From assembly GCA_021786105.1 (NCBI GenBank), contig JAJYNW010000005.1, positions 52,537 through 116,536 on the forward strand: a DNA stretch of 64,000 nt, written 5' to 3'. Source of the DNA: a bacterium (GTDB lineage Bacteria; Patescibacteriota; Microgenomatia; Daviesbacterales; UBA10151). Below are positions 934 through 63,784 of this stretch, piece by piece. A program made the position numbers and the translations under genes. A model generated the notes under the pieces. That model was not told where the DNA came from. It made no database searches and saw only the letters and a program-made list of their open reading frames with translations. How positions within the stretch are numbered: position 1 is the stretch's first letter; each line of letters opens with the position of its first letter.

Positions 934-937
934 ATTC

Positions 938-16705: not shown

Positions 16706-17937
16706 TATCACCTAAATTGCAAAAGATTTTAATAATGGGAATTTTGTTGAGGCTTTTAATAATGCCTTTTTATTTTCACCCCGATATCAAAACTTATAAC
16801 TTTCAATCTTCATTTTTAAAAAATGGTGTCGTAAATATTTATTCATATCTTACAGATCATAAACAAGATTTACCTCTGAAAGAGGAATTTGTCTATTTCC
16901 CGTTAACTTATTTCTTTTTGGGAGGTTACCAAATATTAGCATCTCCGTTTTTGGGGCCGGGATTTCACCAGTGGCTTTTTGATGCTTCCCAATCTGCAAC
17001 TCAACGGCCTGATGTTTTTAGGTACCTTTTTATTTTAAAACTTCCTTACCTTCTTTTGGACATCGCCATAGGCTTTTTGCTAATGAAATTTTTTGAAAAG
17101 GACGAGGACAAGAAAAGGGTATTCACCATCTGGATGTTTAATCCTCTTTCCCTAGTTTTAATTTATGCTTTCTCGAACTTGGACATTATTGTTGTATTTT
17201 TGACTGTCCTGAGTTTATTACTGGCCCAAAAACAAAAACCCATATCTGCAGCTCTTGCGCTTGGAATTGGGGCAGGATTTAAGGCCTATCCGTTATTGTT
17301 TGCCCCATTCCTAATGCTCACAGTTAAAGATTGGAAACAAAGATTGGGAATTTTACTGGTCTCCGTTTTGCCCTTTATCCTGACAATTGCTCCGTTCTTA
17401 AGATCTACAAGTTTTAAAGAGGCAACTTTAACTTCTGGACTTATGACTAGACTTACTTTAATGGGAATGAATTTAGGTTTTAACGAAACATTGCTTGTCG
17501 GTGTAGCGGCACTCTCTGTATTATTTTTCTGGGGTTTTTCAGAGATGCAAATTTCCAAAGATAAACTTTGGCAATATTATCTGGCGCTTTTATTGTTACT
17601 TTTGTCTGTAATCCATTTTCATGTCCAGTGGATTTTATGGATGATGCCGTTTGCGGCCTTACTTTTTGTAAGATCTAAAAAACTAATCTTGCCTATGGCC
17701 TTACTTCTTTTAACGGCATTTTTTATTCCCTTGCTTTATGAGGACAAAGCTATGACCGTGGGGCTCTTTTCTGTCATTAACCCTACATATAATTTATTGC
17801 CAATTCCTTTTGCTATTGTTCAAAAGTTTTATGATCCCTATGTTATCCAGAGTATCTTGCATAGTATTTTTGCGGGGGGGAGTTTAGTGGTTGCTTGGAA
17901 AATACTGAGAAGTAGAAATGTAGATATCGATGAATAG
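16702..17937 (+). CDS. polytopic GT-C-like membrane protein (DUF2029/GT87-like)
   Basis: About 10 TM helices and a GAGFKAYPLLFAPF motif (K-x-x-P ... P-L-F) shared with 22102..23457 and the central module of 43995..47114. Confidence 0.45.
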   Translation: MISPKLQKILIMGILLRLLIMPFYFHPDIKTYNFQSSFLKNGVVNIYSYLTDHKQDLPLKEEFVYFPLTYFFLGGYQILASPFLGPGFHQWLFDASQSATQRPDVFRYLFILKLPYLLLDIAIGFLLMKFFEKDEDKKRVFTIWMFNPLSLVLIYAFSNLDIIVVFLTVLSLLLAQKQKPISAALALGIGAGFKAYPLLFAPFLMLTVKDWKQRLGILLVSVLPFILTIAPFLRSTSFKEATLTSGLMTRLTLMGMNLGFNETLLVGVAALSVLFFWGFSEMQISKDKLWQYYLALLLLLLSVIHFHVQWILWMMPFAALLFVRSKKLILPMALLLLTAFFIPLLYEDKAMTVGLFSVINPTYNLLPIPFAIVQKFYDPYVIQSILHSIFAGGSLVVAWKILRSRNVDIDE

Positions 17938-43198: not shown

Positions 43199-43993
43199 GT
43201 GATTAAATCTATTTTTGTTAGTTCCAAGCACCTTCAGGGAATCGAAAATAGCGGAGCCAACCATTTAGTGGTTAACGGTAGTGATTTAGATAATGAGGGT
43301 TGGGAAAAACTTCAAGGATTAGATACAAGGCTTATTATTTCCGTAAATGCCATAGAAAAAGGCGAAGAAGCTTGTATTTTGGATCCTCAAATTCAAAAAA
43401 GATTACTCGATCGTTTAGATAAAGCCTTGCAATTTCAACCGGAAGGAATTTTGATAGACCGTTTGCGTTTTGGAGGAGATTGTACGGATATTAGGGATGA
43501 AGATATTTCAAAAGCTCACCAAGTATGTCAATTCTGCCAGGGAAAAGATCGCGTAGACACTTTAACGGAATTTGGGAAGCAGCTGAGTAAATATGTAAAT
43601 GGTAGAAGTAAGTTGGGTATTTTTGCCGTTGCTTTTAAGGATGATGAAGCGCCAAAGTTGGGTCAGGTTTTAGGGGTTAATTATTCGAAACTTGGAAAAG
43701 TTTTTGACTTATTTTCTCCGATGTTATATCACCAGATGCTACAAAAACCGGTAACCTATATCTCCGATTATACAAAATGGATAAGTGAGAAAACGGGAAA
43801 ACCAATTTTACCAATCATTCAAATTAAAAACATGCCGGATGATTTAGAGGATAATATTACCGAAGAAGAAATTGCCGCTGCTTTTAATGAGGCTATTAAG
43901 TACCCTTCGGAAGGAATATGCTTTTTCTGGTGGGCTCATGCCTTGGAGAAAAATAAAACAAGCATTATTGGGAAGCTATTTTGCAGCCATTAA
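43199..43993 (+). CDS. soluble protein, possible TIM-barrel glycoside-hydrolase-like fold (unknown)
   Basis: GTG start (first start after an in-frame TAG) and no internal ATG for ~170 codons. No TM helices. Function not recognisable. Confidence 0.3.
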   Translation: MIKSIFVSSKHLQGIENSGANHLVVNGSDLDNEGWEKLQGLDTRLIISVNAIEKGEEACILDPQIQKRLLDRLDKALQFQPEGILIDRLRFGGDCTDIRDEDISKAHQVCQFCQGKDRVDTLTEFGKQLSKYVNGRSKLGIFAVAFKDDEAPKLGQVLGVNYSKLGKVFDLFSPMLYHQMLQKPVTYISDYTKWISEKTGKPILPIIQIKNMPDDLEDNITEEEIAAAFNEAIKYPSEGICFFWWAHALEKNKTSIIGKLFCSH

Positions 43994-43994
43994 T

Positions 43995-46900
43995 TTAGTG
44001 TAGCTTTGGGGAATCGATTAAGAGGTTGGTAACTTTATATTGCCCTTCCGCATTTTTTTTAAAAGACACTTCAATTACTCCTTGATCCAAAGAAAATTCG
44101 GCTCGGTATTTAAACGTGGTCTCGCTCCGATTTACTGAAATTATCGGTTTTCCCAAGCTGACTAAAGGTCCGACCTTAGCATAATTACCATCTCTAATTT
44201 TTTCAAATTCTTTTCGATCAACTTTCTTTAGCAAGTCTGGGCTAAAGTCATGTGTTGTTTGCTCATAATTATTTAAACCGATACCAGCAATTAAATTATC
44301 CACTGTATAAGTTAAAGATTGGGTTCGTGGATTGACTAGGAACTTTGATGAGTCAAATTTAAAAATAGGTAATTTTAAGGTAACAAAAAGAAGAGTTGTG
44401 ACAACCAGAGTAAATATTATTACGTTTCTGTTAATGGTAGGTAATTTAACACTTGCTCTAGGTAAGTAAGAAAATGAACTGTTGAATCTCAGGTAATCTC
44501 TAATGACTACCCCATATACTACAAGGTAATAAAAAGCAAAAATGACAGTTAGATCTACTCTAAGGAAAACCCGATTAAAGGCGGACCCGGTTCCTGTGAT
44601 GCCGTAGAAAAATACCTGTCCCATAAAGTTCATAATATCGAAGAGAATAAGTATTAACCTATTTTTGGAGGTCGGATTTATTAAATAAAGCATTAACATC
44701 ATAAATACGAAATAAAAAGAATGGTTTTGGTATACACCTTTATTAAACATATAATGAGAAAAATAGATTAGCACAGCGGCTGATAAGAAATGAGGGAGGT
44801 CTTTTTTGGAAAATAACCAGTATCTAAAGAGGATAATCCCTGAAATAAGATAGAAAAAATAACCTTGAAAAATTTTAGGCGCTTGGTAAGTCCCTATCTG
44901 CCAATTCATCCAGTTTGACAGTTCCGGCGAACCGAAAATTTGAGGTTGATTTACGTGAAGATAATAAGTAACAATCCAGTTTAAATTCATCGCTAAACCT
45001 GACAATAATGGTGGCGATTCAATTAGGAATTTAATAACTCCGATATCAAAAGAAAACCTGCCGTTGGGTTGGGCGAGGATAAGTAACCAAGTAATAATCG
45101 GTACAAAAAGAAGCCCGATAATGAGTTTTATGGAGGATGGCAAAGTTTGAGAGAGTTTTTCCCGTAGGCTAAAAACTGTTAGCCCAAAAAGAGGAAATAA
45201 GGCCACTGGCTGCCATTTGATCGAAGCAGAAGTTCCTAGGAACAGTCCAGCAAGGAAATATTTTTTCTTAAATAAACAAATGATGGCAAGAATAATTGTG
45301 GGGGCTGTTAAGATATCGGTGGATGTTAAACTATTTGATTGCAGACCTAAAGAAAATGTAGTTAAAAAAATAAGCAGGATATTAGTTTTGTTAAGGCCCC
45401 CTTTCCTCTTAATGATTTTTCCGAGAAGGAGGATTAGTCCCATTGAAATCATATAAAAAACACTGGTGCTTATTTTAGTTGCCAAAGCGAATTGCCCAAC
45501 CACTTCGGGGTGAGAATCTTTGAAGCCAATAATGTTTTGATAAAGATGAGTAAAAGCGGTATAGATAACTGTGGAAAGCGGCGGATATTGATTGTCTGTT
45601 AAAGTGTGGTTGTAGAACGGATTGGCATGAAGAATGGCTACCCGATTGAAGCCCTCAAAAACACCCATATCTGCGGTTCCTTGGGAGGGAATTAAGCTAA
45701 AGTTCAGTAAAAGTATAAGTATGATAAGGAAAACTTTTGAATAGCGTGAAGCTTCTAGCTGTTTTTTAATAGTCGTTCTGTTTAAGACTATTGGAAGTTG
45801 CCACACAGTTAACAACAGGAAGATAGAGGCAAAGAAAAGCTTAAATACTTCTATGTAATTAGAACGCGTATCCGGTCCGACTCCGTTATTCCCGTAGGTT
45901 AAAAAAAGAATACTGAAAGCTAAAACATTGACTAATATTAAACGTACCTGGTTTTCTTTATTTGGCGAGATCATGAATGTCAGAATAGAAAAAATTACCA
46001 ACCATATGAGGTTACCTGCTGAAACTAGAGGGAAAAATACCAAAAATACCATATAGATAATAGAAATGAAATCAAAAAAAGTTGAGGAATCTACGTTTTT
46101 ACAATTTTGAAATTTTTTATACACTAAAAGATACAACAGTAAAAAAGTAAAAGTTAGGGATAAAAACGGGCTTGCTAGGATAGCAAGTGCAAAAGTGATG
46201 GTTAACCAAATAAAGGTATATGTTATTAGTTTTTTCTTTCCAAGGTATGGGCAAAAAATATGCTTTATGAAGTAAAATGAAGAAAAAAAGAGGACGCCTC
46301 CTGTTAATATGGAAGGTAGGATAGCAAGTGTAAGTTGGGAAGGTGTTAACAGATAATATTTCTGTAAATAACCTAATGAGTGATTCAATAGCCAGGGGAT
46401 ATTTAATACCTGGGACGATTTGGTGATAAAGAATGTTGGGGCTAAGACGTAACCATTTACATGAGCGATAGCGGCAAACAAGGTAATTAATGACAGGTTG
46501 AAGACTGTATTTAATTTTGAAGAAGATTTATTCGAAAAAATATATATTGAAAAAATAGGAGCCAAAATTAATAGAGTCCAGTTAAAGAGAATACTTATTA
46601 CATAAAATGTTATGGCTAGGCGGTACCGTTTTCTAAACAGGAATGATAATCCTAGAATAAAAACCGGAGCAATAAATAAGTCCCAGAATCCTAGTGCTAG
46701 ATTAGAAAGCATTAAAGAAAAGCTCAAAAAGTAAACGGTCGCAAGAGAAATTTTTTTAATCCGCCTTGTTTTTACTGACTTGAAGAAGTGAATGAACGAT
46801 ATAAAAGTTAAGAAATATGAAACCAGCAGAAGGGATTTTGATATTATCCACGAGTGTTGTTGGTAATAGAAATTTATGTCTTTGCTGAAAGGGAACCAGT

Positions 46901-47114
46901 GAAGCACAAAGGTGAAAAGAGCAGATGTTCCCGCGTTATACCTAAAAACCAACTCTAATATTGTGTCTACTGTATGTTTTTGTGTTTGAAAAGAAGATGG
47001 GTCGGTCAGTAAGTTATTAAAAAGAGCAAGTGTCGCTACTCCTGGATAGTTATAAAAGAGACTTATGCTTATGAGTATTGCTAAACCTGTAATTAAATAT
47101 AAGTAAATTTTCAT
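43995..47114 (-). CDS. giant (1039 aa) multi-module membrane protein: N-terminal polytopic module + DUF2029/GT87-like GT-C module + C-terminal soluble domain
   Basis: More than 20 hydrophobic segments. The central region has TSASIKWQPVALFPLFGL (K-x-x-P ... PLF, as in 16702 and 22102). The last ~170 aa are hydrophilic. Confidence 0.5.
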   Translation of the reverse strand: MKIYLYLITGLAILISISLFYNYPGVATLALFNNLLTDPSSFQTQKHTVDTILELVFRYNAGTSALFTFVLHWFPFSKDINFYYQQHSWIISKSLLLVSYFLTFISFIHFFKSVKTRRIKKISLATVYFLSFSLMLSNLALGFWDLFIAPVFILGLSFLFRKRYRLAITFYVISILFNWTLLILAPIFSIYIFSNKSSSKLNTVFNLSLITLFAAIAHVNGYVLAPTFFITKSSQVLNIPWLLNHSLGYLQKYYLLTPSQLTLAILPSILTGGVLFFSSFYFIKHIFCPYLGKKKLITYTFIWLTITFALAILASPFLSLTFTFLLLYLLVYKKFQNCKNVDSSTFFDFISIIYMVFLVFFPLVSAGNLIWLVIFSILTFMISPNKENQVRLILVNVLAFSILFLTYGNNGVGPDTRSNYIEVFKLFFASIFLLLTVWQLPIVLNRTTIKKQLEASRYSKVFLIILILLLNFSLIPSQGTADMGVFEGFNRVAILHANPFYNHTLTDNQYPPLSTVIYTAFTHLYQNIIGFKDSHPEVVGQFALATKISTSVFYMISMGLILLLGKIIKRKGGLNKTNILLIFLTTFSLGLQSNSLTSTDILTAPTIILAIICLFKKKYFLAGLFLGTSASIKWQPVALFPLFGLTVFSLREKLSQTLPSSIKLIIGLLFVPIITWLLILAQPNGRFSFDIGVIKFLIESPPLLSGLAMNLNWIVTYYLHVNQPQIFGSPELSNWMNWQIGTYQAPKIFQGYFFYLISGIILFRYWLFSKKDLPHFLSAAVLIYFSHYMFNKGVYQNHSFYFVFMMLMLYLINPTSKNRLILILFDIMNFMGQVFFYGITGTGSAFNRVFLRVDLTVIFAFYYLVVYGVVIRDYLRFNSSFSYLPRASVKLPTINRNVIIFTLVVTTLLFVTLKLPIFKFDSSKFLVNPRTQSLTYTVDNLIAGIGLNNYEQTTHDFSPDLLKKVDRKEFEKIRDGNYAKVGPLVSLGKPIISVNRSETTFKYRAEFSLDQGVIEVSFKKNAEGQYKVTNLLIDSPKLH

Positions 47115-47207
47115 CTGATTAATCCAAGCATACTATTACCGATAGCTTATCTAAAGTCAACCTATATAAAGCTTTAAAATTTTGTTAAAATCACCATAGC
47201 TACACCT

Positions 47208-48701
47208 ATGTCGTTTGTCTCTGTACAGTTTATAATATTTTTCTTCTTCGTTACGGCTCTTTATTTTGTCCTTCCCCATAAATTTAGGTGGTTTTTGTTG
47301 CTTATTTCCAGTGTGATTTTTTATATGGCCTTTATTCCTCAATATATCTTAATTCTTTTGGCACTTATAATTATCGACTATACCGCAGGAAGATTAATTG
47401 CTTCCTCCAAGGGACACAAAAGAAGGGTTTACCTGATAATAAGCATTCTTTCAACTTGTTTGACTCTTTTTGTCTTTAAATACTTCAACTTTTTTATTGA
47501 TAACTATGTTGATGTTGTACGTTTATTCCATGCGAAAAGTACAGTTAGACACTTGGATATTATTTTGCCCCTCGGATTATCCTTTCATACGTTTCAGAGT
47601 TTGGCTTATGTCATTGAAGTCTACAGAAAGAAACAGAAACCTGAGAAAAATTTTGGAATTTATGCGCTGTACGTTATGTTTTACCCGCAATTGGTTGCAG
47701 GGCCAATTGAACGTCCGCAAAACTTACTGCACCAATTTTATGAAAAACATCATTTTGAGTATGAGCGAATTGTTAGTGGCTTAAGATTAATGCTTTGGGG
47801 CGTTTTTATGAAGATTGTCATTGCTGATAGGTTAGCGATGATTGTCAATTATGTTTACAAAGACCCCACGAAATTTGAAGGGTTACCTTTGATCGTGGCA
47901 ACAATTGCTTTTGCCTTCCAAATTTTTTGCGATTTTGCCGGTTATTCCAATATTGCTATTGGAGCTGCAAGAGTTATGGGTTTTAACTTAATGAAGAACT
48001 TTAACAATCCTTATATTTCCAGAAGTGTTCAGGAATTTTGGACCAGGTGGCATATATCGCTTTGTACTTGGTTTAGGGATTACGTCTATATCCCTTTGGG
48101 AGGAAACAGGGTAGGTATCCCGCGATGGGCCATCAATATTATGATAGTTTTCCTTCTTAGCGGTTTATGGCATGGTGCGAATTGGACTTTTGTAATTTGG
48201 GGAGGTCTAAATGGTGTTTATATGATTATCCATCGTTTTTTGGGTAAATACTTTTATGCACTAGCTGATCTTTTTTTCCTGCCGAAACAACAGACATTGT
48301 TTAAAGTCGTGCAGACGGTCACTACTTTCTCTTTGGTCACTTTTTCATGGATCTTTTTTAGAGCACAAAATTTAAGTGATGCTTTGTATATATCCACGCA
48401 TCTTTTTAACCATCTAGGGAGAGATTTAGGTGGCTTAGTTAATATCAACGTGAACATGCTGCTGACAGGTATAGCTCAAAAAACAACTGTCTTGGGAATC
48501 CCTGCTTTCGATCTAATTATGGTGGTATTGGCCATAATCGGTATGGAAACAATCCTTATTAAACAAGAGTCTGTAGGACTGAAGAAGATTTTCTCCTCAA
48601 AACCGATATTTCTTAGGTGGGCCGCATATTACATTCTGATTTTCCTTATAGCCTATTACGTTACTACCCGCCAAGAACAATTTATCTACTTCCAGTTTTA
48701 A
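47208..48701 (+). CDS. MBOAT-family membrane O-acyltransferase (AlgI/DltB/PatA-like)
   Basis: FWTRWHISLCTWFRDYVYIPLGGNR and GLWHGANWTFVIWGGLNG (conserved MBOAT His) with about 10 TM helices. Confidence 0.85.
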   Translation: MSFVSVQFIIFFFFVTALYFVLPHKFRWFLLLISSVIFYMAFIPQYILILLALIIIDYTAGRLIASSKGHKRRVYLIISILSTCLTLFVFKYFNFFIDNYVDVVRLFHAKSTVRHLDIILPLGLSFHTFQSLAYVIEVYRKKQKPEKNFGIYALYVMFYPQLVAGPIERPQNLLHQFYEKHHFEYERIVSGLRLMLWGVFMKIVIADRLAMIVNYVYKDPTKFEGLPLIVATIAFAFQIFCDFAGYSNIAIGAARVMGFNLMKNFNNPYISRSVQEFWTRWHISLCTWFRDYVYIPLGGNRVGIPRWAINIMIVFLLSGLWHGANWTFVIWGGLNGVYMIIHRFLGKYFYALADLFFLPKQQTLFKVVQTVTTFSLVTFSWIFFRAQNLSDALYISTHLFNHLGRDLGGLVNINVNMLLTGIAQKTTVLGIPAFDLIMVVLAIIGMETILIKQESVGLKKIFSSKPIFLRWAAYYILIFLIAYYVTTRQEQFIYFQF

Positions 48702-48702
48702 C

Positions 48703-49941
48703 ATGAAGAAGGAGAAGTTGAATTCAGGAAGAGAAAGAGACAAGGATGTAAAAAGATTCCTGTTTAAACTGTCTATATTTCTTTTTCTACCTCTTGTCTG
48801 GATTATTGCTTCAGTGAACTCACTTCTTAATGAACCGATAGACATAAACCAAATCCGTTCTTGGGAATCGCTATCTGTTTTAGAAAAGAACGCTTTTTTA
48901 AAAGGTCCTTTTTACCCATATATGACCCTGCACAAAATTGAACAAGGAGATACGCCACATCCAAAGAGATTAGCGGTTGCTAAAGATGTTATATGGAAAA
49001 CTGATCGATATGGATACAGAAAGGAAGACAAGGGAATGGATAAATACGATGTTGTTATTATTGGCGACTCTCAGACGGCAGGCTCAACTTTAACTCAAAA
49101 CGATATGTTGACTGAGAAATTAGAAAAAGACTTAGGATTAACGACTTATCCCTACGCTCCTTCAAATATACTTTTTTATGCTCAAGATGAACGGTTTCAA
49201 AAGAATCCGCCTAAGATTGTAGTTTTAGCGTCAGCAGAAAAATTATTTATGAATATTCCGGATGTTGAAGGAGTAAAAAGTGCTTCTTTTATAGACCAAT
49301 ATTTGTCTCCTTTGGCTGCTAATAAGTGGGTTATAAATATGGCAGTGATTTTTGACCGGCTCAAGAAGAAATATTTCGTTGACTATTTTAGGGCGATGAT
49401 TTGGAGATTGCCGGAAGACATAAAACATTTGATGGCTATTTCACAAGGACAACAGGCTAAAGTAGCTAAAAGCGGAGATGTTAACCTAGGACCAGTAGTC
49501 GTTTCTCCGCAGGAGGTCAGAGAAGGGGAAACTAATAATATTAATTTAGCATTGGACGGGTCGATGGTTTTTTCATTGCAATCTGATGACGCTTATATCG
49601 AAGTTACAGATAGTGAGTTATATTGGCAAGTGCAAAAAATGCTTCATTATCAAAAGTATTTTAAATCTCAAGGTGTACGGTTTATTATTATGCCAATTCC
49701 CAACAAAGAAAATATTTACTGGGAGAAGGTTCCAAGAGGGAAACATCCCACTACAATTCCTCAGTTCATTGAAAAGGCTCGGGAAGTTGGGTTAGAAGTT
49801 GTTGACTTACAAACTCCGTTTGAAAAATTCCACCAAGAAAATCCTGAAGAGCTTCTATATAATATAGACGATACACACTGGAATGCCAGAGGGGCAGAGA
49901 TGGCTGCTTCAATTTTGGCGGAAGAAATTAAGAAAAAATGA
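48703..49941 (+). CDS. SGNH/DHHW-like extracytoplasmic O-acyltransferase partner (AlgJ/AlgX/PatB/DltD-like)
   Basis: N-terminal signal-anchor TM, VVIIGDSQTAGS (SGNH block I-like) and a C-terminal DDTHWNARGAEM (DHHW-type) motif. Placed immediately after the MBOAT gene with 1-nt spacing. Confidence 0.5.
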   Translation: MKKEKLNSGRERDKDVKRFLFKLSIFLFLPLVWIIASVNSLLNEPIDINQIRSWESLSVLEKNAFLKGPFYPYMTLHKIEQGDTPHPKRLAVAKDVIWKTDRYGYRKEDKGMDKYDVVIIGDSQTAGSTLTQNDMLTEKLEKDLGLTTYPYAPSNILFYAQDERFQKNPPKIVVLASAEKLFMNIPDVEGVKSASFIDQYLSPLAANKWVINMAVIFDRLKKKYFVDYFRAMIWRLPEDIKHLMAISQGQQAKVAKSGDVNLGPVVVSPQEVREGETNNINLALDGSMVFSLQSDDAYIEVTDSELYWQVQKMLHYQKYFKSQGVRFIIMPIPNKENIYWEKVPRGKHPTTIPQFIEKAREVGLEVVDLQTPFEKFHQENPEELLYNIDDTHWNARGAEMAASILAEEIKKK

Positions 49942-52765: not shown

Positions 52766-53749
52766 ATGAAAGCGTTTGTTACAGGAGCGACAGGTTTCAT
52801 CGGACAGAATTTAGTTAAACGTTTAATTGCTGATAGCTGGGAAGTGAGTGTCTTGATTAGGTCAAAAGGAAAGATGGGAGATTTGGATGGCAAAAAGGTA
52901 AATATTGTTTCCGGTGATTTAACTGATCTAAGTAAAGTAAAGAACGCCCTTAAAAAGAATGATGTGGTTTTTAATCTAGCAGCGGTATTAATGCACCATA
53001 AATTACCTGAAAAGAAATACTGGGAGACCAATGTTACGGGTTTAGAAAATTTATTGAAAATTTATCAAAACTCCAATATAAAGCGATTTGTCCATGTTTC
53101 TACAGTTGGTATATATGGACCTACAGGAGGAAAGATGCTTGACGAGTCATCTCCTATTCATCCCTCAGATATTTATTCAAGGACAAAAGCTACTGCAGAA
53201 AATTTATTATTCAGGTATTATAAAAAGACAGGTTTCCCGATGACTATTGTAAGGCCGACGATTGCTTTTGGTCCGGGTGATTTGCGCCCAGGTTTTTCAA
53301 ATCTTTTTCCACTGGTAAAAAAGAAACTTTTTATTCCGATAGGAGATGGGAAGAATTTTTTTCATACAGTATATGTAGAGAATTTAGTTCAAGGTTTAAT
53401 ACTTGCGGCGACTCATAAAAATGCTATAGGTGAAGATTTTATTATCGGAGACGATCCTTGCCCAACTATGGAAAAGCTAATAAGGACAATCGCTGAAGTT
53501 GAAGGAGTTACTTTATTCCCGCTCTCTTTGCCTCAGGATTTAGCTTTGCTAATAGGGAAAGCGTTTGATTTAGGAGATAAATTTAATATTCCTCAAGTAT
53601 TGAACTCAAAGAGAGTTAAATTTATTACCGAGAATAGAAAATACGATATTTCAAAGGCGAAAAAATTAATCGGGTACCACCCCTTTTTTGATCTAAAAAC
53701 TGGGATTCAAAAAACTTTTGATTGGTACCAAGAGAAGGGACTAATATGA
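52766..53749 (+). CDS. NAD-dependent sugar epimerase/dehydratase (extended SDR)
   Basis: MKAFVTGATGFIGQNLVKRL Rossmann motif; YSRTKATAE (YxxxK catalytic dyad). Confidence 0.8.
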   Translation: MKAFVTGATGFIGQNLVKRLIADSWEVSVLIRSKGKMGDLDGKKVNIVSGDLTDLSKVKNALKKNDVVFNLAAVLMHHKLPEKKYWETNVTGLENLLKIYQNSNIKRFVHVSTVGIYGPTGGKMLDESSPIHPSDIYSRTKATAENLLFRYYKKTGFPMTIVRPTIAFGPGDLRPGFSNLFPLVKKKLFIPIGDGKNFFHTVYVENLVQGLILAATHKNAIGEDFIIGDDPCPTMEKLIRTIAEVEGVTLFPLSLPQDLALLIGKAFDLGDKFNIPQVLNSKRVKFITENRKYDISKAKKLIGYHPFFDLKTGIQKTFDWYQEKGLI

Positions 53750-54999
53750 AAATCTGTGTTTTAACCCATACATTTCCCCGTAATGATAAGGATGTATCAG
53801 CGGCGTTCATGAAAGAATTTGCCGATGGTTTAGCTCAAAATGGCAATCAGGTAACAGTAATTACACCTTATGATCCCAAATTTTCCAGGAAAAATGATCC
53901 ATTTAAGGTAATTACCTATAAATATATTTGGCCGGATAGCCTACATCTATTAGGTTATTCACAGACAATGGAGGAGGATGTCAAACTTCGCAAGAGGGCA
54001 TATATGTTGTTACCGTTCATGTTACTTTTCTCGTTGATAACTTTAGTTAAGGTTATTAAGAAAGAGAGAATAGAACTTATCTCTGTCCACTGGATTTTAC
54101 CTAACGGATTAGTGGCTTTTATCGCTTCGCTAATTACAAAAGTACCGTATGTCGTAACTTTACCAGGAACAGATGTTTATCTGGCGAGTCGAATTAAGCC
54201 GTTTGGTTGGGTAGCGAAAATTATTGCTTTAAATGGGGCAGGAATTACATCAAACAGTTCGTATTTATTAAAAAGGTTGCTAAATTTAGGAATTTCTAAT
54301 AAGCCAACTCTAATTATTAGTTACCCAGCTGATGTGTCGAGATTTAAACCTTTGGAGGCTAATAAAAATCAATACAGAGAAAAATTTGGATTAGAAGTCA
54401 ATAATTTTGTTATTTTAGCGATTGGACGTTTAGTTTATAAAAAAGGTTTTGAATATCTTATAAAATCACTACCTGATGTTTTAAGAAAGCATACTAATGT
54501 ACGTCTTTTAATTGGTGGCGATGGGGATTTGAAGCCGGAATTACAGAAAACAGTTGAAAAAATGGGTTTGCAAGACAAAGTTATTTTTGCAGGGACGATT
54601 TCTCGGGATGAAATTTTAAACGTCTATAATTTGGCTGATGTGCTAGTGGCTCCTTCGGTAATAGATAAAAAGGGGAATGTTGATGGGGGACCGGTTGTGT
54701 GTTTAGAATCTATGGCTTGTGGGAAGCCGCAAATAGTTACTAATATTTTAGGGATGGCCGATGTGGTGGAGGATGGTGTAAATGGCTTTATTGTTCCAGA
54801 GAAAGACCCTCAAGCTTTAAGTGCAGCAATCGAAAAACTTGTTGTGTCTCCAAAACTTAGGAAAGAGATGGGAATAAAAAATCGGCAGCTAGTTACAGAG
54901 AGACTCGGAACTCAGTCTGTGGGGAAAATATATACTGATTTTTTCAACGATGTTTTAAAGAATCGAGGTGTAAAACAGAAAAAGCTTTCATATGCATAA
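53746..54999 (+). CDS. GT4 (GT-B fold) glycosyltransferase
   Basis: Start refined to ATG 53746 (MKICVLTHTFP; ATGA overlap with upstream). C-terminal region matches the GT4 pattern (APSVIDKKGNVDGGPVVCLESMACGKPQIVT). Confidence 0.75.
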   Translation: MKICVLTHTFPRNDKDVSAAFMKEFADGLAQNGNQVTVITPYDPKFSRKNDPFKVITYKYIWPDSLHLLGYSQTMEEDVKLRKRAYMLLPFMLLFSLITLVKVIKKERIELISVHWILPNGLVAFIASLITKVPYVVTLPGTDVYLASRIKPFGWVAKIIALNGAGITSNSSYLLKRLLNLGISNKPTLIISYPADVSRFKPLEANKNQYREKFGLEVNNFVILAIGRLVYKKGFEYLIKSLPDVLRKHTNVRLLIGGDGDLKPELQKTVEKMGLQDKVIFAGTISRDEILNVYNLADVLVAPSVIDKKGNVDGGPVVCLESMACGKPQIVTNILGMADVVEDGVNGFIVPEKDPQALSAAIEKLVVSPKLRKEMGIKNRQLVTERLGTQSVGKIYTDFFNDVLKNRGVKQKKLSYA

Positions 55000-57085
55000 G
55001 TTAAAACTTATTTCAGATTGGAAAATTGCCGTTGTGCTCAGTTTATTGTTTTTTGTGGTAGCTGTGATCACACTTCCTGATTATGGTATCAACTGGGACA
55101 CCATTAACCACTTACCTAGGGGGCAGGCCTACCTACATTATTTTTTGACAGGAAATAAAGACTATAACGACCTGCCTGAATGGAGTATATATTGGCAGAA
55201 CCCTCAATCGCTTTCGATAAATGCAAATTTACCCAGTGATGAAGTAAAAGGGCGTAGTTTTTATGAGAGTGTTGGTATGCCGTTTACTTGGATGATACAA
55301 CATGAGGGAGGAAGTAGTGGAGGCGGTCATCCTCCTTTAAGTGACATACTCTCCTCAGTATTTAATGTTGTCTTATTTCAAAATCTGGGAATAATAAATG
55401 ATATTGATTCGTATAGAGTTTATAGCATACTCCTTGCATCTTTATTGGTAGGTTTGATTTATAAGTGGGTTGCGTCAAAATATGGAAAGTTACCTGCATT
55501 AATATCTGCCCTATCTTTAGCGTTATATCCTCTTTTTTGGGCAGAATCTCATTTTAATAATGAAAAGGATATACCGGAAACCGTTTTTATATCATTTATG
55601 ATTTTCTTTTTCTGGCAGGGAATCGTTCAGGAGAAATGGAAGAAGGTTTTAATTTCTGGTTTATTTTTCGGTTTGGCTCTGGGTACGAAATTTAATGTCT
55701 TATTTGTCCCATTTATTATTTTGCCCTGGCTTACAATATATTGGTGGGGTAAAAAACAAGAATGGGAAAAAGGGTTTGGGAGATGGTTTCTTTCTAAACG
55801 TAGTCTATTTTTTTCTTCCGTTGCAGCACTTGCAATTGGCTCTGCTATATTTATTTTTTCTTGGCCTTATCTTTGGACGAATACAATCTCCCGGGTTGCC
55901 AAGGTGGTTGGGTTTTATAAAGAGATAGGCCTTACTGCTAATATCAATCAGAACTACGTTGGCCCATTTAAAATTAATACCTATCCCATTCAGTGGATTG
56001 CTTATACCACTCCGCCCATAATTTTAATTTTAACTTTAATTGGGATTATCTCTATCCCAAAGTTAATAAGAAAAGATAATGAAAAGCTTTCTTTATTAAT
56101 TTTGTTGTGGTTGGCAATCCCGATTTTGCGGGTTACAGCTCCCGGTACAACAATTTATGGTGGTATCCGCCAGATTATGGAGTATATTCCTCCGTTGGCA
56201 ATTCTTTCAGGTATTGGAACTGCAACTATACTTGGGCTTTTGAAGAAAAGGCTTTACCGGTTTATTGCTATTGGATTAATTGTTCTGGGATTTTCATTTA
56301 ACATTTATCGTCTGATATCTATTCACCCGAATGAAAATGTGTATTTTAATTTTTTAATTGGAGGTTTGAAGGGCGCCAAAGAGAGAAATATTCCTTCCTG
56401 GGGGAATACTTTTGGGGCAGCTTATAGAGAGGGAATTATCTGGATAAATAAAAATGCTGAGCCAGGTAGTTCGGTAGTAATGGCGCACGGTTTAATGCCA
56501 AACATACCCAAGATTTGGTTAAGGTCCGACCTGAACTTTACCAATAGTTTACGGAGTGGATATTTACGTCAGGGAGAGTATGCTATCTCTTTAACTTCCG
56601 AAGGAACAGATGATTCGTCGTACTATGACACTTACCTGTCTAAATTCATGAAACCAGTTTATGAGGTAAAAGTAGATGGTGTAGATATTTTGGAAGTTTG
56701 GAAAAATGATAATACTCATCTGATTTCCCCTTGGAATGAAGAAAATTTGTCGGGGGTAAAAATGACCAGAGATAATAATGGACTGACATTTGATTTGGGT
56801 CAGGTTGAGAGGGTATCGAGATTAGAAATTGATTATCAGGAAAGTAGTTGTCAGCCTTTAAGTTCCGGGTATGTGAGATATTCAGTTAACGGTAAAGATT
56901 GGGGAGAAAATGAAGGGAAGCTTCCTCAAAGTTGGAGAATAGCAACATTGGGTCAGCAACCAAAGGATGGAAAATTTTTAGAACCTTTTGTTGGTCAAGA
57001 AATTCGGTATATAAAGCTAGGCCTATCACCGCAAGATGCTTGTTTAAACAATGTAGTAGACTATAAAGTGTTTGCATTTAAGTAA
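54992..57085 (+). CDS. GT-C-fold membrane glycosyltransferase (ArnT-like) with C-terminal discoidin (F5/8 type C)-like domain
   Basis: TM1 then a DYGINWDTINHLPRGQAY loop and a multi-TM core. The last ~130 aa (LTFDLGQVERVSRLEIDY ... YSVNGKDWGE ... IRYIKLGL) follow the discoidin-domain pattern. Confidence 0.55.
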   Translation: MHKLKLISDWKIAVVLSLLFFVVAVITLPDYGINWDTINHLPRGQAYLHYFLTGNKDYNDLPEWSIYWQNPQSLSINANLPSDEVKGRSFYESVGMPFTWMIQHEGGSSGGGHPPLSDILSSVFNVVLFQNLGIINDIDSYRVYSILLASLLVGLIYKWVASKYGKLPALISALSLALYPLFWAESHFNNEKDIPETVFISFMIFFFWQGIVQEKWKKVLISGLFFGLALGTKFNVLFVPFIILPWLTIYWWGKKQEWEKGFGRWFLSKRSLFFSSVAALAIGSAIFIFSWPYLWTNTISRVAKVVGFYKEIGLTANINQNYVGPFKINTYPIQWIAYTTPPIILILTLIGIISIPKLIRKDNEKLSLLILLWLAIPILRVTAPGTTIYGGIRQIMEYIPPLAILSGIGTATILGLLKKRLYRFIAIGLIVLGFSFNIYRLISIHPNENVYFNFLIGGLKGAKERNIPSWGNTFGAAYREGIIWINKNAEPGSSVVMAHGLMPNIPKIWLRSDLNFTNSLRSGYLRQGEYAISLTSEGTDDSSYYDTYLSKFMKPVYEVKVDGVDILEVWKNDNTHLISPWNEENLSGVKMTRDNNGLTFDLGQVERVSRLEIDYQESSCQPLSSGYVRYSVNGKDWGENEGKLPQSWRIATLGQQPKDGKFLEPFVGQEIRYIKLGLSPQDACLNNVVDYKVFAFK

Positions 57086-58427: not shown

Positions 58428-59366
58428 TTAAATTACTTTTTTAATAAAAGAGGAATAGTCAGATTTCCCTTTAGAGTGAACTAACATTTCTGCAAGAAGT
58501 CCAGTGGAAATAAATTGGATTCCGATAACCATCAGCAATATTCCTAGGAATAACAATGGTTGCCGGTATTGGATGGTTCCTGTTGTTATCCTTAGATAAG
58601 AAATATAGAGACCGATTAAGAATCCCAAAAAGAATGATATTAAACCAAAAGTTCCGAAGAAATGACCAGGTCTGCGAGTATAACCAGTGAGGAATATAAT
58701 TGTCAGGAGGTCTAAGATTCCCTTAATTCCTCTACTCCAGCCAAATTTAGTTTTACCGTATTTCCGCGCTCGGTGTTCGACTATCACTTCCCCGACTCTA
58801 AAATTTTGTTTAGCGGCAATGATAGGAATAAAGCGATAAAGTTCGCCATAAAGGTTAAGGTTATCGATCAGTTCTCTCCGGTAAGCTTTAAAACCGCAAT
58901 TGGTGTCATGTATCTTAATTCCTGTAAGCCTGCGGGTTAGGAAGTTAATAATTCGGGAAGGAATGACTTTCCCGATTGAAGGATCGTGGCGATTCTTTTT
59001 CCACCCTGACACCAGATCGTAACCTTCTTCAATCATATTAATAAACGAGGGGATTTCCTTAGGGTTGTCTTGGAGGTCAGCGTCTAAAGTGAAGATTATT
59101 TTACCTTCAGCATGATCAAAACCGACTTGGAGAGCAGCAGATTTACCAAAATTTCCTCGGAACCTAATAACTTTTACATTCCTATCATTTTGGTGAATTT
59201 TTTCCATAACCTGGAAAGTTTTATCAGTAGATCCGTCATCAATGAAAATAATTTCGTAGGTTTTCTTAAGTTGTTTGACGACCTCGAGGATTTCGGTATA
59301 GAGGATCTCTATGGAATCTTCTTCGTTTTTTGCTGGTATAATAAAGGACAACTCACAGCTTTTCAT
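58428..59366 (-). CDS. GT2 polyprenyl-phosphate glycosyltransferase, GtrB/ArnC-like with two C-terminal TM helices
   Basis: LSFIIPAKNEEDSI, IIFIDDGSTDKT, LDADLQDNP and CGFKAYRRE motifs, plus C-terminal hydrophobic helices (LLTIIFLTGY ... FLGILLMVIGIQF), the classic GtrB/ArnC architecture. Confidence 0.8.
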   Translation of the reverse strand: MKSCELSFIIPAKNEEDSIEILYTEILEVVKQLKKTYEIIFIDDGSTDKTFQVMEKIHQNDRNVKVIRFRGNFGKSAALQVGFDHAEGKIIFTLDADLQDNPKEIPSFINMIEEGYDLVSGWKKNRHDPSIGKVIPSRIINFLTRRLTGIKIHDTNCGFKAYRRELIDNLNLYGELYRFIPIIAAKQNFRVGEVIVEHRARKYGKTKFGWSRGIKGILDLLTIIFLTGYTRRPGHFFGTFGLISFFLGFLIGLYISYLRITTGTIQYRQPLLFLGILLMVIGIQFISTGLLAEMLVHSKGKSDYSSFIKKVI

Positions 59367-61498: not shown

Positions 61499-63784
61499 AT
61501 GAAGAAAATTGCTCACTTAATTTACAGTTGGATCCAGGAAAATAAGTTATTGGCTGGGATTTTGGCGATTGCTGCTTTGTTGCGATTTATAGGCGTCTAT
61601 CCGGGCTATCCTCCAACTCATCCAGATGAAACATATATCTATGGACATGCACTGCAAATGATCAAGAACTTAAACATTGATCCTACCAGGTATGACTACC
61701 CGGCATTTATTCCCTTAATTCATGCGATGTTGTATATGTTAATCTTTAACCCGGTTTTTATAGTCTACAGTTTCATTTTTTCTCCTGATAATCTGCCTGT
61801 TTTTAGGAATGTACTCTTTTTTTATCAGCATGTGCCTCTATATAATCAACAAACTGCTGCTATTTTTTGGGGACGGGCAATTACTGCTGCGTTTAGTTTG
61901 GGAACTGTCTATTTAGTTTTTCAAGTTGGTAAAAAATACTTTAATTACTACACAGGAATTGCGGCAGCGTTGTTAACTGCAGTGAATTTTAGAGAGGTAT
62001 TAAACAGCCATATTGGCTTACCGGATGTCTATAACGCTTTTTTCTTACTCTTGTGTTTCTACTTTTTTAAACAATTATTAGAAAGTCCGAATAAGAAGAA
62101 TTACTTTTTAAGCGGTATCTCATTGGCATTCTTTTTCTCTACAAAGTCTCAAGTCTTTCCTATACTAACATTTTTCTTGGTCCATCTAATTGCTGTCTGG
62201 CCAAAGAAAATACAAGGGAATCTAAGAGCATTAATAAGGGGATTGTTTAAAAAAGATTTTATCATAGCTGCCTTAATTTCCCCAATTTTCTATCTAATAA
62301 TTAACGTTTACCAATTTATCCATTGGGATAAATTTTATGCAAGCAACTATTACACTACATTGCAATATCGTTTTGGAATAAATAACTTGGATTTTTATCC
62401 CATTTCCTACATGTATCATATTGGGATTGGAGGAATAATTCTAATGCTTATTCCAGTTGGTTTAATATTAGGTTTCTGGAGATTTAGATTACAAACAAGC
62501 TTGCTTTCATCTGTGCTAATTCCATTTTTAATTGTTTTTCTTTATTACAGTAATGGAGGCTTTTACATTCGTAATTTTGTAACAGTTATTCCTCTGTTAT
62601 TAATTTTTGCAAGTGTTGCTATAAGTGAAATCTTCACTGTTGTAAGCAGGATTCTAATACTTAATTCTAAAGTAACGACATTACTCATAATTGTTGCAGT
62701 AATGGTTCTTTCTGCCCAACAAATCAGAGATTCGTTTATTAATACGCTTAGCTTTACGAGGCCATGGGCAATGACTGAGGCCAGAATGTGGGTTGAGAGA
62801 AATGTTCCGAACGGAGAAACAATTGCTGTTAGGCAATTTGACAAATTTTCAAAAGGTAAAAATTTTAAACGAGTAGCTTTTGGAATGGATAACGTTTTTT
62901 CTTTAGCCGAGATGCAGGAAGAGAGGGCCTCTTATGGGTACATATCTTTAGATGAGCTCTCAAATAATTTTTACTGGTGGATGAGGACAATGTCAGACGA
63001 ATCAATAAAATATTGGAATAAGGAAAATGCCGACTCAATCTCTCAAAACATGTATCCCGCCGTTGCCTCATCAGAGCTGGCCTCTTGGGCGGTGGCTGCA
63101 TATATTAAACCATGGCAAGCTCCTGATTCGAGTTTCTTTATCGTTCGGGTTCCTGATGTATTAAGTTTAGGTAACAAAAAATTAATTGCAGAATTCCCTT
63201 TTAATGATTCACGCAGTTTATCTTCCTGGAGTTTGGTAAATGGTTGGGATAAGGATGTTAAAAATATTAACTGGGATGGTAATTTGGGTTATGACAAGAA
63301 AGGATCGTTACGATTAGTAAGATCAGGCGCTTATCCTTCGGTAATTCGGGCTGTTTCACCGGCAATTTCGGTAGTGAGTAACGGTAATCAGATAAAGGCT
63401 TACGAGGTTGCGGCTTGGATGAAAACAGGAGATAGTTTGGCAAAGAAAGTTCGTGATGGATATATAAGGGTTGATTTTTATGAAAATGATCCTGGCAAAA
63501 TTACACTTACAACCGGAAGTTTGTACACTGCTTTATCATCCAGAGTTTATGGAACATCAGATTGGGTGGAGAAAAGAGTTACTGTGGTTCCTCCTGTGAA
63601 TTCTAAATTTATGACTGTGAGCTTAGAAATGCAGGGCCAGGGGGGGACGGATATATGGGCTGATGATGTAAGTATTTTTGAGTCAGAGAAATTTTTCTCG
63701 GATCCTAGGGTTCAGAAACCATACCTAAACTATTATAAAATCCCCAAAAACGTTTTATTCCCCGTGAGTCATGGCAATCTTTAG
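61499..63784 (+). CDS. GT-C-fold membrane glycosyltransferase (ArnT-like) with C-terminal CBM_4_9-like carbohydrate-binding domain
   Basis: PPTHPDETYIYGHALQ (DE loop) and a multi-TM core. The last ~200 aa form a beta-rich domain ending IWADDVSIFE, similar to CBM4/9/22-type modules. Confidence 0.6.
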   Translation: MKKIAHLIYSWIQENKLLAGILAIAALLRFIGVYPGYPPTHPDETYIYGHALQMIKNLNIDPTRYDYPAFIPLIHAMLYMLIFNPVFIVYSFIFSPDNLPVFRNVLFFYQHVPLYNQQTAAIFWGRAITAAFSLGTVYLVFQVGKKYFNYYTGIAAALLTAVNFREVLNSHIGLPDVYNAFFLLLCFYFFKQLLESPNKKNYFLSGISLAFFFSTKSQVFPILTFFLVHLIAVWPKKIQGNLRALIRGLFKKDFIIAALISPIFYLIINVYQFIHWDKFYASNYYTTLQYRFGINNLDFYPISYMYHIGIGGIILMLIPVGLILGFWRFRLQTSLLSSVLIPFLIVFLYYSNGGFYIRNFVTVIPLLLIFASVAISEIFTVVSRILILNSKVTTLLIIVAVMVLSAQQIRDSFINTLSFTRPWAMTEARMWVERNVPNGETIAVRQFDKFSKGKNFKRVAFGMDNVFSLAEMQEERASYGYISLDELSNNFYWWMRTMSDESIKYWNKENADSISQNMYPAVASSELASWAVAAYIKPWQAPDSSFFIVRVPDVLSLGNKKLIAEFPFNDSRSLSSWSLVNGWDKDVKNINWDGNLGYDKKGSLRLVRSGAYPSVIRAVSPAISVVSNGNQIKAYEVAAWMKTGDSLAKKVRDGYIRVDFYENDPGKITLTTGSLYTALSSRVYGTSDWVEKRVTVVPPVNSKFMTVSLEMQGQGGTDIWADDVSIFESEKFFSDPRVQKPYLNYYKIPKNVLFPVSHGNL

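Follow-up and report, generated by a model that had tools for sequence, protein, structure and literature searches.

A tandem GT-C(A)-fold membrane protein from an uncultivated bacterium, in which a GT87-like glycosyltransferase module is joined to a paralog that has probably lost catalysis

GT-C enzymes make cell-envelope glycans and are of interest as mycobacterial drug targets, in bacterial O-/N-glycosylation and in eukaryotic ER glycosylation. Several of them act as paralogous heterodimers or together with dead GT-C-fold partners, and the second subunit of such assemblies is hard to study. Among the closest described systems, mycobacterial PimE (CAZy GT87; PF09594) is a polyprenyl-phosphate-mannose-dependent alpha-1,2-mannosyltransferase, in which D58 is catalytic and K195 and H322 are phosphate-binding (PMC12041525). 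PIG-M/Gpi14 (GT50), ALG6 and ALG3 (GT57/GT58) are eukaryotic enzymes of a single module. In the Gtr three-component system, a GtrA flippase and a GtrB polyprenyl-phosphate glycosyltransferase operate with a GtrC-type GT-C enzyme, and the Gtr systems known to us all use a single-module GT-C. Literature searches on tandem, duplicated or pseudo GT-C proteins and on the expansion of GT-C enzymes in bacteria of candidate phyla yielded no relevant paper, and no description of a tandem GT-C architecture of the kind reported here was found in the literature searched.

The window, i.e. the whole 64,000-nucleotide stretch of DNA that was analysed, carries the gene under study on its minus strand, as delimited by the ORF list and the translation:

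43995..47114, minus strand: complete gene for a 1039-aa protein, with an ATG start and the stop codon at 43995..43997

The product is a polytopic membrane protein with its N-terminus inside and its C-terminal domain outside. Hydropathy and AF2 secondary structure give ∼27 transmembrane helices in two strongly hydrophobic blocks, in agreement with the original prediction of more than 20 hydrophobic segments in two blocks, and the AF2 model of the full chain (pLDDT 78.9, pTM 0.80) is suggestive of two modules packed into one body. The protein had also been described as the largest of the window, which it is not, as the ORF at 11699..15163 (plus strand) encodes 1154 aa. That the ORF is an assembly or frameshift join of two adjacent genes, or that its N block is low-complexity noise, has next to no likelihood. 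Some relatives do have split N and C gene pairs, and the frame is broken at one related locus (L022); however, the identical 1039-aa protein is called on seven contigs, each assembled independently (Logan SRR13201255, Logan SRR13178629 and ENA ERZ27237183 among them), and a frameshift fusion is therefore rejected. The same conclusion follows from the relatives, since both modules are found in one chain in the closest homolog (P0002, 1033 aa, 59% identity to the target, same architecture), are covered together in ∼32 representative clusters, and lie in a single uninterrupted ORF at 10/12 examined genome or metagenome loci. The N block, for its part, folds confidently as a GT-C module, which excludes a low-complexity artefact.

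Unfused homologs of each module, for which a search had been recommended, were indeed found, but always as adjacent pairs: in 4/4 examined cases the N gene adjoins the C gene in N-to-C order, with the two genes abutting or overlapping. Single-module relatives occur in MAGs of Gottesmanbacteria, Planctomycetota, Verrucomicrobia and Hydrogenedentota, and one distant relative, P0067, has a GT87-like module fused to an SGNH/GDSL domain. A word-index homology search with the full protein and with a 21-sequence profile, a method poorly suited to a hydrophobic protein, returned only the target itself and P0002. The same search with the C-terminal domain alone returned nothing, as did a scan of genome contigs with a 2-sequence profile; there were no matches to this profile in a PDB sequence search and none to the target in NCBIfam.

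The second hydrophobic block constitutes the C module, and the residues that define it are as follows:

44460..45770, minus strand: C module (residues 449-885); GT-C(A) glycosyltransferase module of the GT87/PIG-M/ALG-like type, 12 TM, conserved site complete
45669..45671, minus strand: D482, in the first outer loop of the C module
from 45585..45587, minus strand: Y510-P-P of the C module
45207..45218, minus strand: K633-W-Q-P636 of the C module
44955..44957, minus strand: H720 of the C module
44721..44723, minus strand: H798 of the C module

Across 21 fused proteins, D482, the YPP motif, K633, H720 and H798 of the C module are each present in 21/21. D482 lies within a G-[ST]-x-D motif that is also retained in at least 90% of 28 C-module relatives, and is assigned to the first extracytoplasmic loop from the model and the topology. 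Besides this Asp, the C module possesses the GT87-type Lys of the K-x-x-P motif and His, and the K-x-x-P ... PLF signature that had been noticed on the second block is confirmed as K633-W-Q-P636 ... P641-L-F. The equivalence of D482/K633/H798 with D58/K195/H322 of PimE is drawn from motif position and topology. Pfam GT87 (PF09594; formerly DUF2029) matches the second block only. Its gathering threshold of 25 bits is reached neither by the full-length target (19.4 bits) nor by the isolated C module (23.0 bits), whereas the close relatives P0002 (26.6 bits), P0003 (27.0 bits) and P0007 (26.6 bits) exceed it. Among the 28 members of the C-module family, 13 match GT87 at E <= 0.001 and 4 match Pfam Alg6_Alg8. 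The earlier view of a two-module membrane protein with a GT87/DUF2029-like second module is supported. The C-module family profile further matches the solved, Dol-P-Man-dependent GPI-MT-I (E 1.9e-6), although over profile positions 75-232 only, and Pfam Mannosyl_trans (PIG-M) has no match in the target while it does match the window paralog at 16702..17937. We read the connection to PIG-M as a superfamily-level relation rather than membership. Judged from its conserved residues, the C module looks active.

The first hydrophobic block, the N module, has no match in Pfam over its ∼450 residues and is here assigned a fold and a likely role:

45771..47114, minus strand: N module (residues 1-448), 14-TM GT-C(A)-fold, diverged paralog of the C module and putative pseudo-glycosyltransferase partner
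47031..47033, minus strand: T28 of the N module (equivalent of D482)
47025..47027, minus strand: A30 of the N module (nearby acid position)
46680..46682, minus strand: D145 of the N module
46581..46583, minus strand: N178 of the N module (equivalent of K633)
46011..46013, minus strand: N368 of the N module (equivalent of H798)

Both modules exhibit the polytopic GT-C(A) fold: as in the solved enzymes, the N-terminal TM core is conserved and the first outer loop contains juxtamembrane helices. They are paralogs of one another: BLASTP aligns N with C at E 8e-8, and hhalign at 99.9% (E 1.4e-32 over 403 columns), a score of a type that is inflated between membrane proteins through common composition. 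In the hhalign alignment the motifs YPP, FLFKKKY and (K/N)W..P are in register. The remaining GT-C paralogs of the window are all more distant from either module (BLASTP E of at least 0.01) than the two are from one another, and descent of the N module from one of those paralogs is rejected accordingly.

The N module is less constrained than its partner and yet conserved, with a mean pairwise identity of 27% vs 43% and with 4 invariant columns vs 28 in the C module. The column equivalent to D482 is variable in the 21 fused proteins (T28 in the target); a nearby acid position holds E in 11/21, with Ala in the target (A30) and in P0002. No acidic column of the first loop is invariant, i.e. the conserved catalytic acid of GT-C(A) enzymes is missing. 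At the position of K633 the N modules carry N, S, E or D (N178 in the target), and at that of H798 mostly N (N368 in the target), so that the phosphate-binding Lys and His of GT87 are both absent, each being found in 0/21. D or E is present at position 145 in 18/21 and P at positions 60 and 61 in 15/21 and 17/21, respectively, where the target reads Y-N-A and not Y-P-P, and the long outer loop is replaced by two extra helices. Pfam GT families, GT87 included, match none of the N modules. On these sequence patterns the N module most likely is catalytically inactive. The idea of a second active transferase is not supported, the N module being without the residues found in every C module.

A bifunctional enzyme, in which both modules are active and draw on polyprenyl-phosphate donors to add two sugars in turn, not necessarily of the same kind, the N site being non-canonical, would be compatible with the full GT-C(A) fold of the N module, with the YPP motif and the acids at 145 and near the D482 equivalent that most or half of the family keep, and with clear purifying selection on the N module, as seen in its conserved motifs FLFxKK, GNLIWL and PVRGxYF. 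We nevertheless consider this quite unlikely, as the target itself has T28, A30 and Y-N-A, no N module retains the Lys or the His, which every C module has and which serve in PimE for donor-phosphate binding, the loop that was exchanged for helices is the one forming the donor arch in PimE-type enzymes, and a Pfam GT match is wanting throughout. Since the Glu near the D482 equivalent persists in half of the family and D/E145 in 18/21, some N modules might retain sugar binding, or even catalysis via a different residue set. The original prediction had also offered a transporter-like channel as the role of the N module. A transporter- or flippase-like channel through which the C module receives the polyprenyl-phosphate-sugar or the acceptor from across the membrane would fit with the obligate pairing of the two modules, and binding of polyprenyl carriers is conceivable for a lipid-facing GT-C module without catalysis; but the top structural matches contain no transporter fold, on which ground the channel is rejected as very improbable.

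Beyond the C module the chain continues with two further elements:

44340..44459, minus strand: basic cytoplasmic linker and one additional TM helix (residues 886-925; helix 896-913), by which the chain re-crosses the membrane
43998..44339, minus strand: C-terminal extracytoplasmic alpha+beta domain, DUF3887-like (residues 926-1039)

The helix spans 896-913 in the AF2 model and coincides with a hydropathy peak at 893-921. The hydrophilic C-terminus, put at ∼170 aa beforehand, is accordingly only ∼115–125 aa long (residues ∼914/926-1039) and is preceded by this extra TM helix. P0002 alone shares the tail with the target; the remaining fused proteins of the family stop near profile position 880 and lack linker and helix. 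AF2 models the tail at low confidence as four short helices followed by five strands. Pfam DUF3887 (PF13026) matches the tail at E 0.0067 and 17.5 bits, below the 31.8-bit gathering threshold. In BLASTP the tail aligns with both repeats of P0134 (31% identity, E 3e-12; 27%, E 1e-8), a lipobox protein that itself matches DUF3887 at 72.4 bits, and the A1 profile matches P0134 at E 1.8e-11; homology of the tail to DUF3887 is thus supported transitively, via P0134. When the tail domain was searched by itself against PDB sequences, the only matches were spurious ones to designed repeats. We place the tail outside the cell because the protein has 27 TM helices, because the positive-inside count over short loops is 22 K+R inside vs 7 outside, and because its DUF3887 homolog P0134 is a lipoprotein.

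The surroundings of the gene supply candidates for the synthesis of a lipid-linked donor:

58428..59366, minus strand: 312-aa GT2 enzyme, a polyprenyl-phosphate glycosyltransferase of the ArnC/GtrB type that may synthesise the lipid-linked sugar donor
2151..2846: ArnC/GtrB-like GT2 gene
82..684: GtrA-like gene

The product of 58428..59366 matches solved ArnC (E 1e-47) and GtrB sll0501 (E 2e-39) over its full length, and its orthologs (66–69% identity) adjoin the N/C pair at loci L071 and L074. Across the family loci, PMT_2 GT-C genes and ArnC/GtrB-like GT2 genes are recurrent neighbours. Scanning the window for Rfam families and tRNAs gave no hits. By its gene neighbours, the target appears to belong to an island for surface glycosylation, Gtr-like and dependent on polyprenyl-phosphate-sugars, in an uncultivated small-genome bacterium.

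Directly upstream, the gene faces an acyltransferase locus:

47115..47207, no strand: divergent intergenic spacer between the target and the MBOAT gene, 93 nt
47160..47132, minus strand: promoter-like TTGACT-17 nt-AATAGT in the spacer, weak, ending 17 nt before the ATG
47208..48701, plus strand: MBOAT/DltB-like O-acyltransferase gene (Pfam MBOAT E 1.9e-23; NCBIfam DltB E 2e-46, below cut-off)
48703..49941, plus strand: gene for an AlgX-type SGNH protein (Pfam ALGX E 1.6e-18)

The spacer is AT-rich, as had been noted, with 30% GC vs 37.7% in the window, and its divergent geometry had been taken to suggest co-regulation with the MBOAT gene. In a more extended form, the target would be a functional unit with the MBOAT/AlgX operon, co-regulated from the spacer, and the glycan would subsequently be O-acylated by MBOAT/AlgX. 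The arrangement itself is consistent with this, as are the presence of an MBOAT gene (80% identical) near the closest homolog and the joining of GT87-like and SGNH/GDSL parts in P0067. At the locus of the closest homolog, however, a GSDH gene sits between the target homolog and the MBOAT gene, and an MBOAT neighbour is found at 0/16 more distant family loci (0/12 fused and 0/4 split); at L071 and L074 the pair is flanked instead by a GT4-methyltransferase gene and by a PMT_2 gene next to the ArnC/GtrB-like GT2 gene. The corresponding place in homolog locus L001 reads TTGACT-18 nt-TAGTAT, but in a promoter/terminator consensus scan of the spacer region the match counts equal those expected from shuffled sequence, and for this reason we make no regulatory claim. 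Of the proposed co-regulation, the geometry remains, while promoter signal and conserved neighbourhood do not bear it out. The MBOAT link is weak, holding only in the nearest relative; a specific, conserved partnership is rejected, and the functional unit as a whole appears unlikely.

Taken together, we consider it reasonably probable that the protein links an enzyme covalently to a pseudo-enzyme, both being membrane glycosyltransferase modules of the GT-C(A) fold, with an extracytoplasmic tail domain following. The ArnC/GtrB-like GT2 enzymes of the island would synthesise a polyprenyl-monophosphate-hexose at the cytoplasmic face, and it would then be flipped. We infer that the C module, of the GT87/PIG-M/ALG type, most likely accepts the hexose from this donor on the outer side of the membrane and passes it to an extracytoplasmic acceptor, with D482 of the first outer loop as the putative catalytic base and with K633, H798 and H720 predicted to hold the donor phosphate, in the manner of D58, K195 and H322 of PimE. 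The N module would have arisen by tandem duplication of a C-type module and have lost base, Lys and His; it most likely no longer catalyses transfer and is probably an obligatory intramolecular partner, which may stabilise the C module or present a lipid-linked acceptor/carrier. Helix 896-913 would place the DUF3887-like domain outside the cell, where it is predicted to serve, probably, in acceptor or envelope binding. More tentatively, the target may represent a wider set of conserved bacterial enzyme/pseudo-enzyme GT-C pairs, fused or adjacent, in which a dead N module is an obligatory carrier- or acceptor-binding subunit and a counterpart of the PIG-U type, with DUF3887 gained in the lineage of the target. 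A natural single-chain pair with one degenerate half, together with its split relatives, offers a compact system for the contribution of a non-catalytic GT-C module, be it to stability, carrier-lipid handling or acceptor presentation.

In comparison with the described systems, the target differs from PimE, with which it shares ∼10% sequence identity in structural alignment and whose Pfam family it matches below cut-off, in the presence of a dead paralogous module before, and of a further helix and a DUF3887-like domain after, the GT87-like part, and in the lack of an evident phosphatidylinositol-mannoside pathway. It is tandem, unlike PIG-M and the ALG enzymes, and PIG-M requires a separate small partner, PIG-X, and not a fused GT-C paralog. 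A role comparable to that proposed for the N module may be that of PIG-U/GAB1, a catalytically inactive GT-C-fold subunit of GPI transamidase. Pfam PIG-U has no match to the N module. Unlike PIG-U, the N module is joined covalently to its partner, of which it is a recent paralog, and this partner is a glycosyltransferase and not a transamidase. As paired GT-C modules, the Pmt1-Pmt2 and EmbA-EmbB heterodimers resemble the covalent fusion, although there both chains retain catalytic residues and are separate polypeptides, whereas in the target family there is usually one polypeptide with one half degenerate. The island, like the Gtr systems, has GtrA-like, ArnC/GtrB-like GT2 and many GT-C genes, but on a far larger scale: within the 64 kb, a Pfam GT-C family is matched by 16 ORFs. 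Against this background the target is a variation on a well-known enzyme class, with an architecture that is conserved in uncultivated bacteria and a chemistry that is itself probably ordinary.

The open reading frame listed at 43995..47114 starts with ATG, and its 1039-residue translation has a very high hydrophobicity in its hydropathy profile. Its parts are as follows.

43995..47114 (-), gene of the 1039-aa protein
residues 1-448, N module
residues 449-885, C module
residues 896-913, additional TM helix
residues 926-1039, DUF3887-like tail

The K-x-x-P ... PLF motif of the original prediction is seen as K633-W-Q-P636 ... P641-L-F, whereas the hydrophilic C-terminus, put there at ~170 aa, is only about 115-125 aa long because the TM helix 896-913 comes after the second hydrophobic block. 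An assembly artefact is contradicted by the identical protein on 7 contigs from different assemblies, and the closest homolog (P0002, 1033 aa, 59% identity), with an identical layout, also counts against it.

Pfam matched GT87 in the second block only, below threshold (19.4 bits versus a cut-off of 25), and DUF3887 at the C-terminus, also below threshold; an NCBIfam search of the protein gave no match. The first block had been left without a family in the original prediction, which proposed either a second transferase-type module or a transporter-like channel. In the translation itself the two halves look alike. In BLASTP of residues 1-452 against 453-1039, residues 115-216 pair with 570-673 (31% identity, E 8e-8), and the other GT-C paralogs of the window all give E >= 0.01 against either half. 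Alignment of N and C module profiles built on 21 family members (hhalign) runs end-to-end over 403 columns (99.9% probability, E 1.4e-32), with the YPP, FLFKKKY and (K/N)-W-x-x...P motifs in register. Modelled alone (pLDDT 80.3, pTM 0.84), the N module has structural matches to ALG6 (22.0), ALG3 (20.5), GPI-MT-I (19.2), PimE (17.8) and GAB1/PIG-U (16.8/16.6). Taken together, the two alignments and the model matches identify the N-terminal block, as judged from sequence and modelling, as a second GT-C(A)-fold module that is a paralog of the C-terminal block, and the transporter was set aside on the grounds of this fold and paralogy.

The two modules differ in conservation: in an alignment of 21 fused proteins, 28 columns of the C module are invariant and its mean pairwise identity is 43%, versus 4 columns and 27% for the N module. 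In PimE, the donor phosphate is bound by K195 and H322, the tip of the first juxtamembrane helix carries the catalytic base D58, and activity is lost on mutation of either D58 or K195 (PMC12041525). Judged by topology and motif position, the counterparts of D58, K195 and H322 in the C module are D482, K633 and a late-loop His.

Equivalent positions in the C and N modules (counts over 21 aligned fused proteins)
Catalytic acid, first outer loop: C, D482 (21/21); N, T28, variable column
Neighbouring acid position: C, not applicable; N, E in 11/21, A30 in the 1039-aa protein
YPP motif: C, Y510-P-P (21/21); N, Y-N-A in the 1039-aa protein, YPP in most members
Donor-phosphate Lys: C, K633 (21/21); N, N178, column N/S/E/D, K in 0/21
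Donor-phosphate His: C, H798 (21/21), H720 also 21/21; N, N368, H in 0/21

The long outer loop 681-751 of the C module is matched in the N module by a short loop and then two further helices, which gives the latter 14 TM helices versus 12 (model and hydropathy). The N module has a conservation of its own, with K93, P186 and N396 invariant, the GNLIWL and PVRGxYF motifs recurring and an acid at position 145 in 18 of 21 members. From these residue patterns, it is most likely a non-catalytic partner.

In all, 27 TM helices were assigned from the model and hydropathy profile, and the short loops carry 22 K+R on the proposed cytoplasmic side versus 7 on the outer side. Each module is predicted to begin and end inside the cell, and D482, K633 and H798 would face outward; the additional helix 896-913 would thus place residues 926-1039 outside the cell. 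This tail aligns by BLASTP with each of the two P0134 repeats (E 3e-12 and 1e-8); P0134 is a family-search protein with a lipobox signal and a DUF3887 match at 72.4 bits. Its model (helices, then five strands) is of low confidence, and fold matches were therefore left unused; by analogy with accessory domains of other GT-C enzymes, we suggest that it may bind an acceptor or the envelope.

An exhaustive HMMER search with a two-sequence profile yielded 355 relatives at E <= 1e-3 (49 at E <= 1e-30), whereas a word-index protein search, even with a 21-sequence profile, returned only the query and one homolog; word-index negatives for polytopic membrane proteins should not be taken as absence. Both modules are covered by ~32 representative clusters (699-1033 aa), and among fused relatives the extra helix and tail occur only in P0002. 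In genome and metagenome contigs, both modules were found together at 12 loci. Ten of these encode them in one unbroken ORF of 774-883 aa; the frame is interrupted at L022, and L024 is cut by the end of its contig, close to which there is also a short break in frame. Two fused paralogs lie in tandem at L018 (23..5233) and at L019 (184..5336), and the fused genes L023 and L031 share contig Ga0080064_1000326 within ~15 kb; the family itself thus expands by duplication. The pairing is obligate: unfused homologs occur for both modules, and in all four cases inspected the partner is the neighbouring gene and the N-to-C order is kept, with a C-module gene next downstream of the N-only P0054 and P0057 and an N-module gene directly upstream of the C-only P0003 and P0037, at abutting or overlapping junctions. 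The more remote relatives, with a single module, come from several phyla and are ordinary GT87-like proteins. In the simplest history suggested by these sequences, a GT87-like gene was tandem-duplicated, the upstream copy diverged and the two were fused in most lineages; the helix and DUF3887-like domain would have been gained in the lineage of the 1039-aa protein and P0002.

All 64 kb of the window form one glycosylation island, in which 16 ORFs match Pfam GT-C families (PMT/PMT_2, PTPS_related, GT87, PIG-M, PIG-V, YfhO), alongside 14 GT2 and 5 GT4 genes, two Wzx-like flippases, a GtrA-like gene, methyltransferases and an epimerase; tRNA and Rfam scans of the whole window gave no hits. The contig from which it comes is 942,606 bp long, suggestive of a small genome. 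Individual genes are listed below.

2151..2846, GT2 resembling ArnC, DPMS and GtrB
11699..15163 (+), 1154 aa, N-terminal signal or anchor helix, ~470-aa hydrophilic region, ~16 hydrophobic segments; no Pfam match at E <= 0.01
18570..20543 (-), 657 aa, and 23475..25247 (+), 590 aa, polytopic, ~9-11 hydrophobic segments each; no Pfam match
43199..43993 (+), 264-aa soluble ORF, convergent with the fused gene, stop codons one base (43994) apart; no family match beyond a 14-bit HobA, and no terminator-like site found between the two
47208..49941 (+), MBOAT (47208..48701, DltB-like, below the NCBIfam cut-off), then an AlgX-type SGNH-domain protein, one base apart
53722..54999, GT4, overlapping a PMT_2 gene (54992..57085), ~8 kb from the fused gene and on the other strand
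58428..59366, GT2, polyprenyl-phosphate glycosyltransferase of the ArnC/GtrB type, matched over its full length (E 1e-47 to ArnC, 2e-39 to GtrB)
61499..63784, 761-aa PMT_2

The 1154-aa product, not the fused protein as first predicted, is the largest of the window, and the 657- and 590-aa proteins may be further unclassified GT-C-like proteins. At two loci with separate, abutting N and C genes (L071 4213..6847, L074 1565..4175), a gene fusing GT4 to a methyltransferase lies on one side of the pair and a PMT_2 gene (52% identity to 54992..57085) on the other; beyond the latter come an ArnC/GtrB-like GT2, with 66-69% identity to 58428..59366, and more GT2 genes. In the window, GT4 and PMT_2 overlap directly and the fused gene stands ~8 kb off on the opposite strand, which suggests a relocation or inversion. 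Homologs of the 761-aa PMT_2 and of the short GT2 recur beside fused genes at other loci.

The AT-rich 93-nt spacer to the divergent MBOAT gene (47115..47207) is as predicted (GC 30% versus 37.7% for the window), and a TTGACT-17/18 nt-TA-rich element lies upstream of both the fused gene and its closest homolog; promoter-like matches in the spacer region are no more frequent than in shuffled sequence. Among the family loci compared, MBOAT (80% identical to 47208..48701) occurs only near P0002 (locus L001), with a glucose/sorbosone dehydrogenase gene (GSDH, 655..1788) in between; the family as a whole therefore does not conserve the proposed co-regulation with MBOAT. For O-acylation of an extracytoplasmic glycan, an MBOAT paired with an AlgX-type SGNH protein is the usual two-component arrangement. 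One exhaustive-search match (P0067, 840 aa) joins a single GT87-like module to a C-terminal SGNH/GDSL domain; this fusion hints that the glycans which this GT-C family makes may gain or lose O-acyl groups, which could relate to the MBOAT/AlgX neighbours.

We propose that an ArnC/GtrB-like GT2 would make polyprenyl-phosphate hexose at the cytoplasmic face, that this putative donor would be flipped to the outer face and that the C module would use the hexose there, with D482 as the candidate base and K633 and His residues on the phosphate. The two modules would form an intramolecular pseudo-heterodimer, in which the N module may give stability or bind the lipid carrier or acceptor, and the DUF3887-like tail would act outside the membrane. 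The analysis shows the folds, the paralogy, the residue patterns, the obligate pairing and the topology parity; the donor class and the roles of the residues, the N module and the tail are inferred.

Among known enzymes, PimE (GT87), PIG-M (GT50), ALG6 and ALG3 come nearest. As the protein falls under the Pfam GT87 cut-off whereas its close relatives pass it, we class the C module as GT87-like at the level of the superfamily. The complete chain is regarded as a variant of the GT-C enzymes with a new architecture and probably ordinary chemistry; within the limited literature searched, neither a tandem GT-C protein nor an enzyme/pseudo-enzyme one was described. The presumably dead half has its closest analogues in PIG-U and GAB1, and the pairing of the modules has them in two heterodimers, Pmt1-Pmt2 and EmbA-EmbB. 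This conserved architecture offers a useful model, open to testing, for GT-C subunits without catalytic activity.
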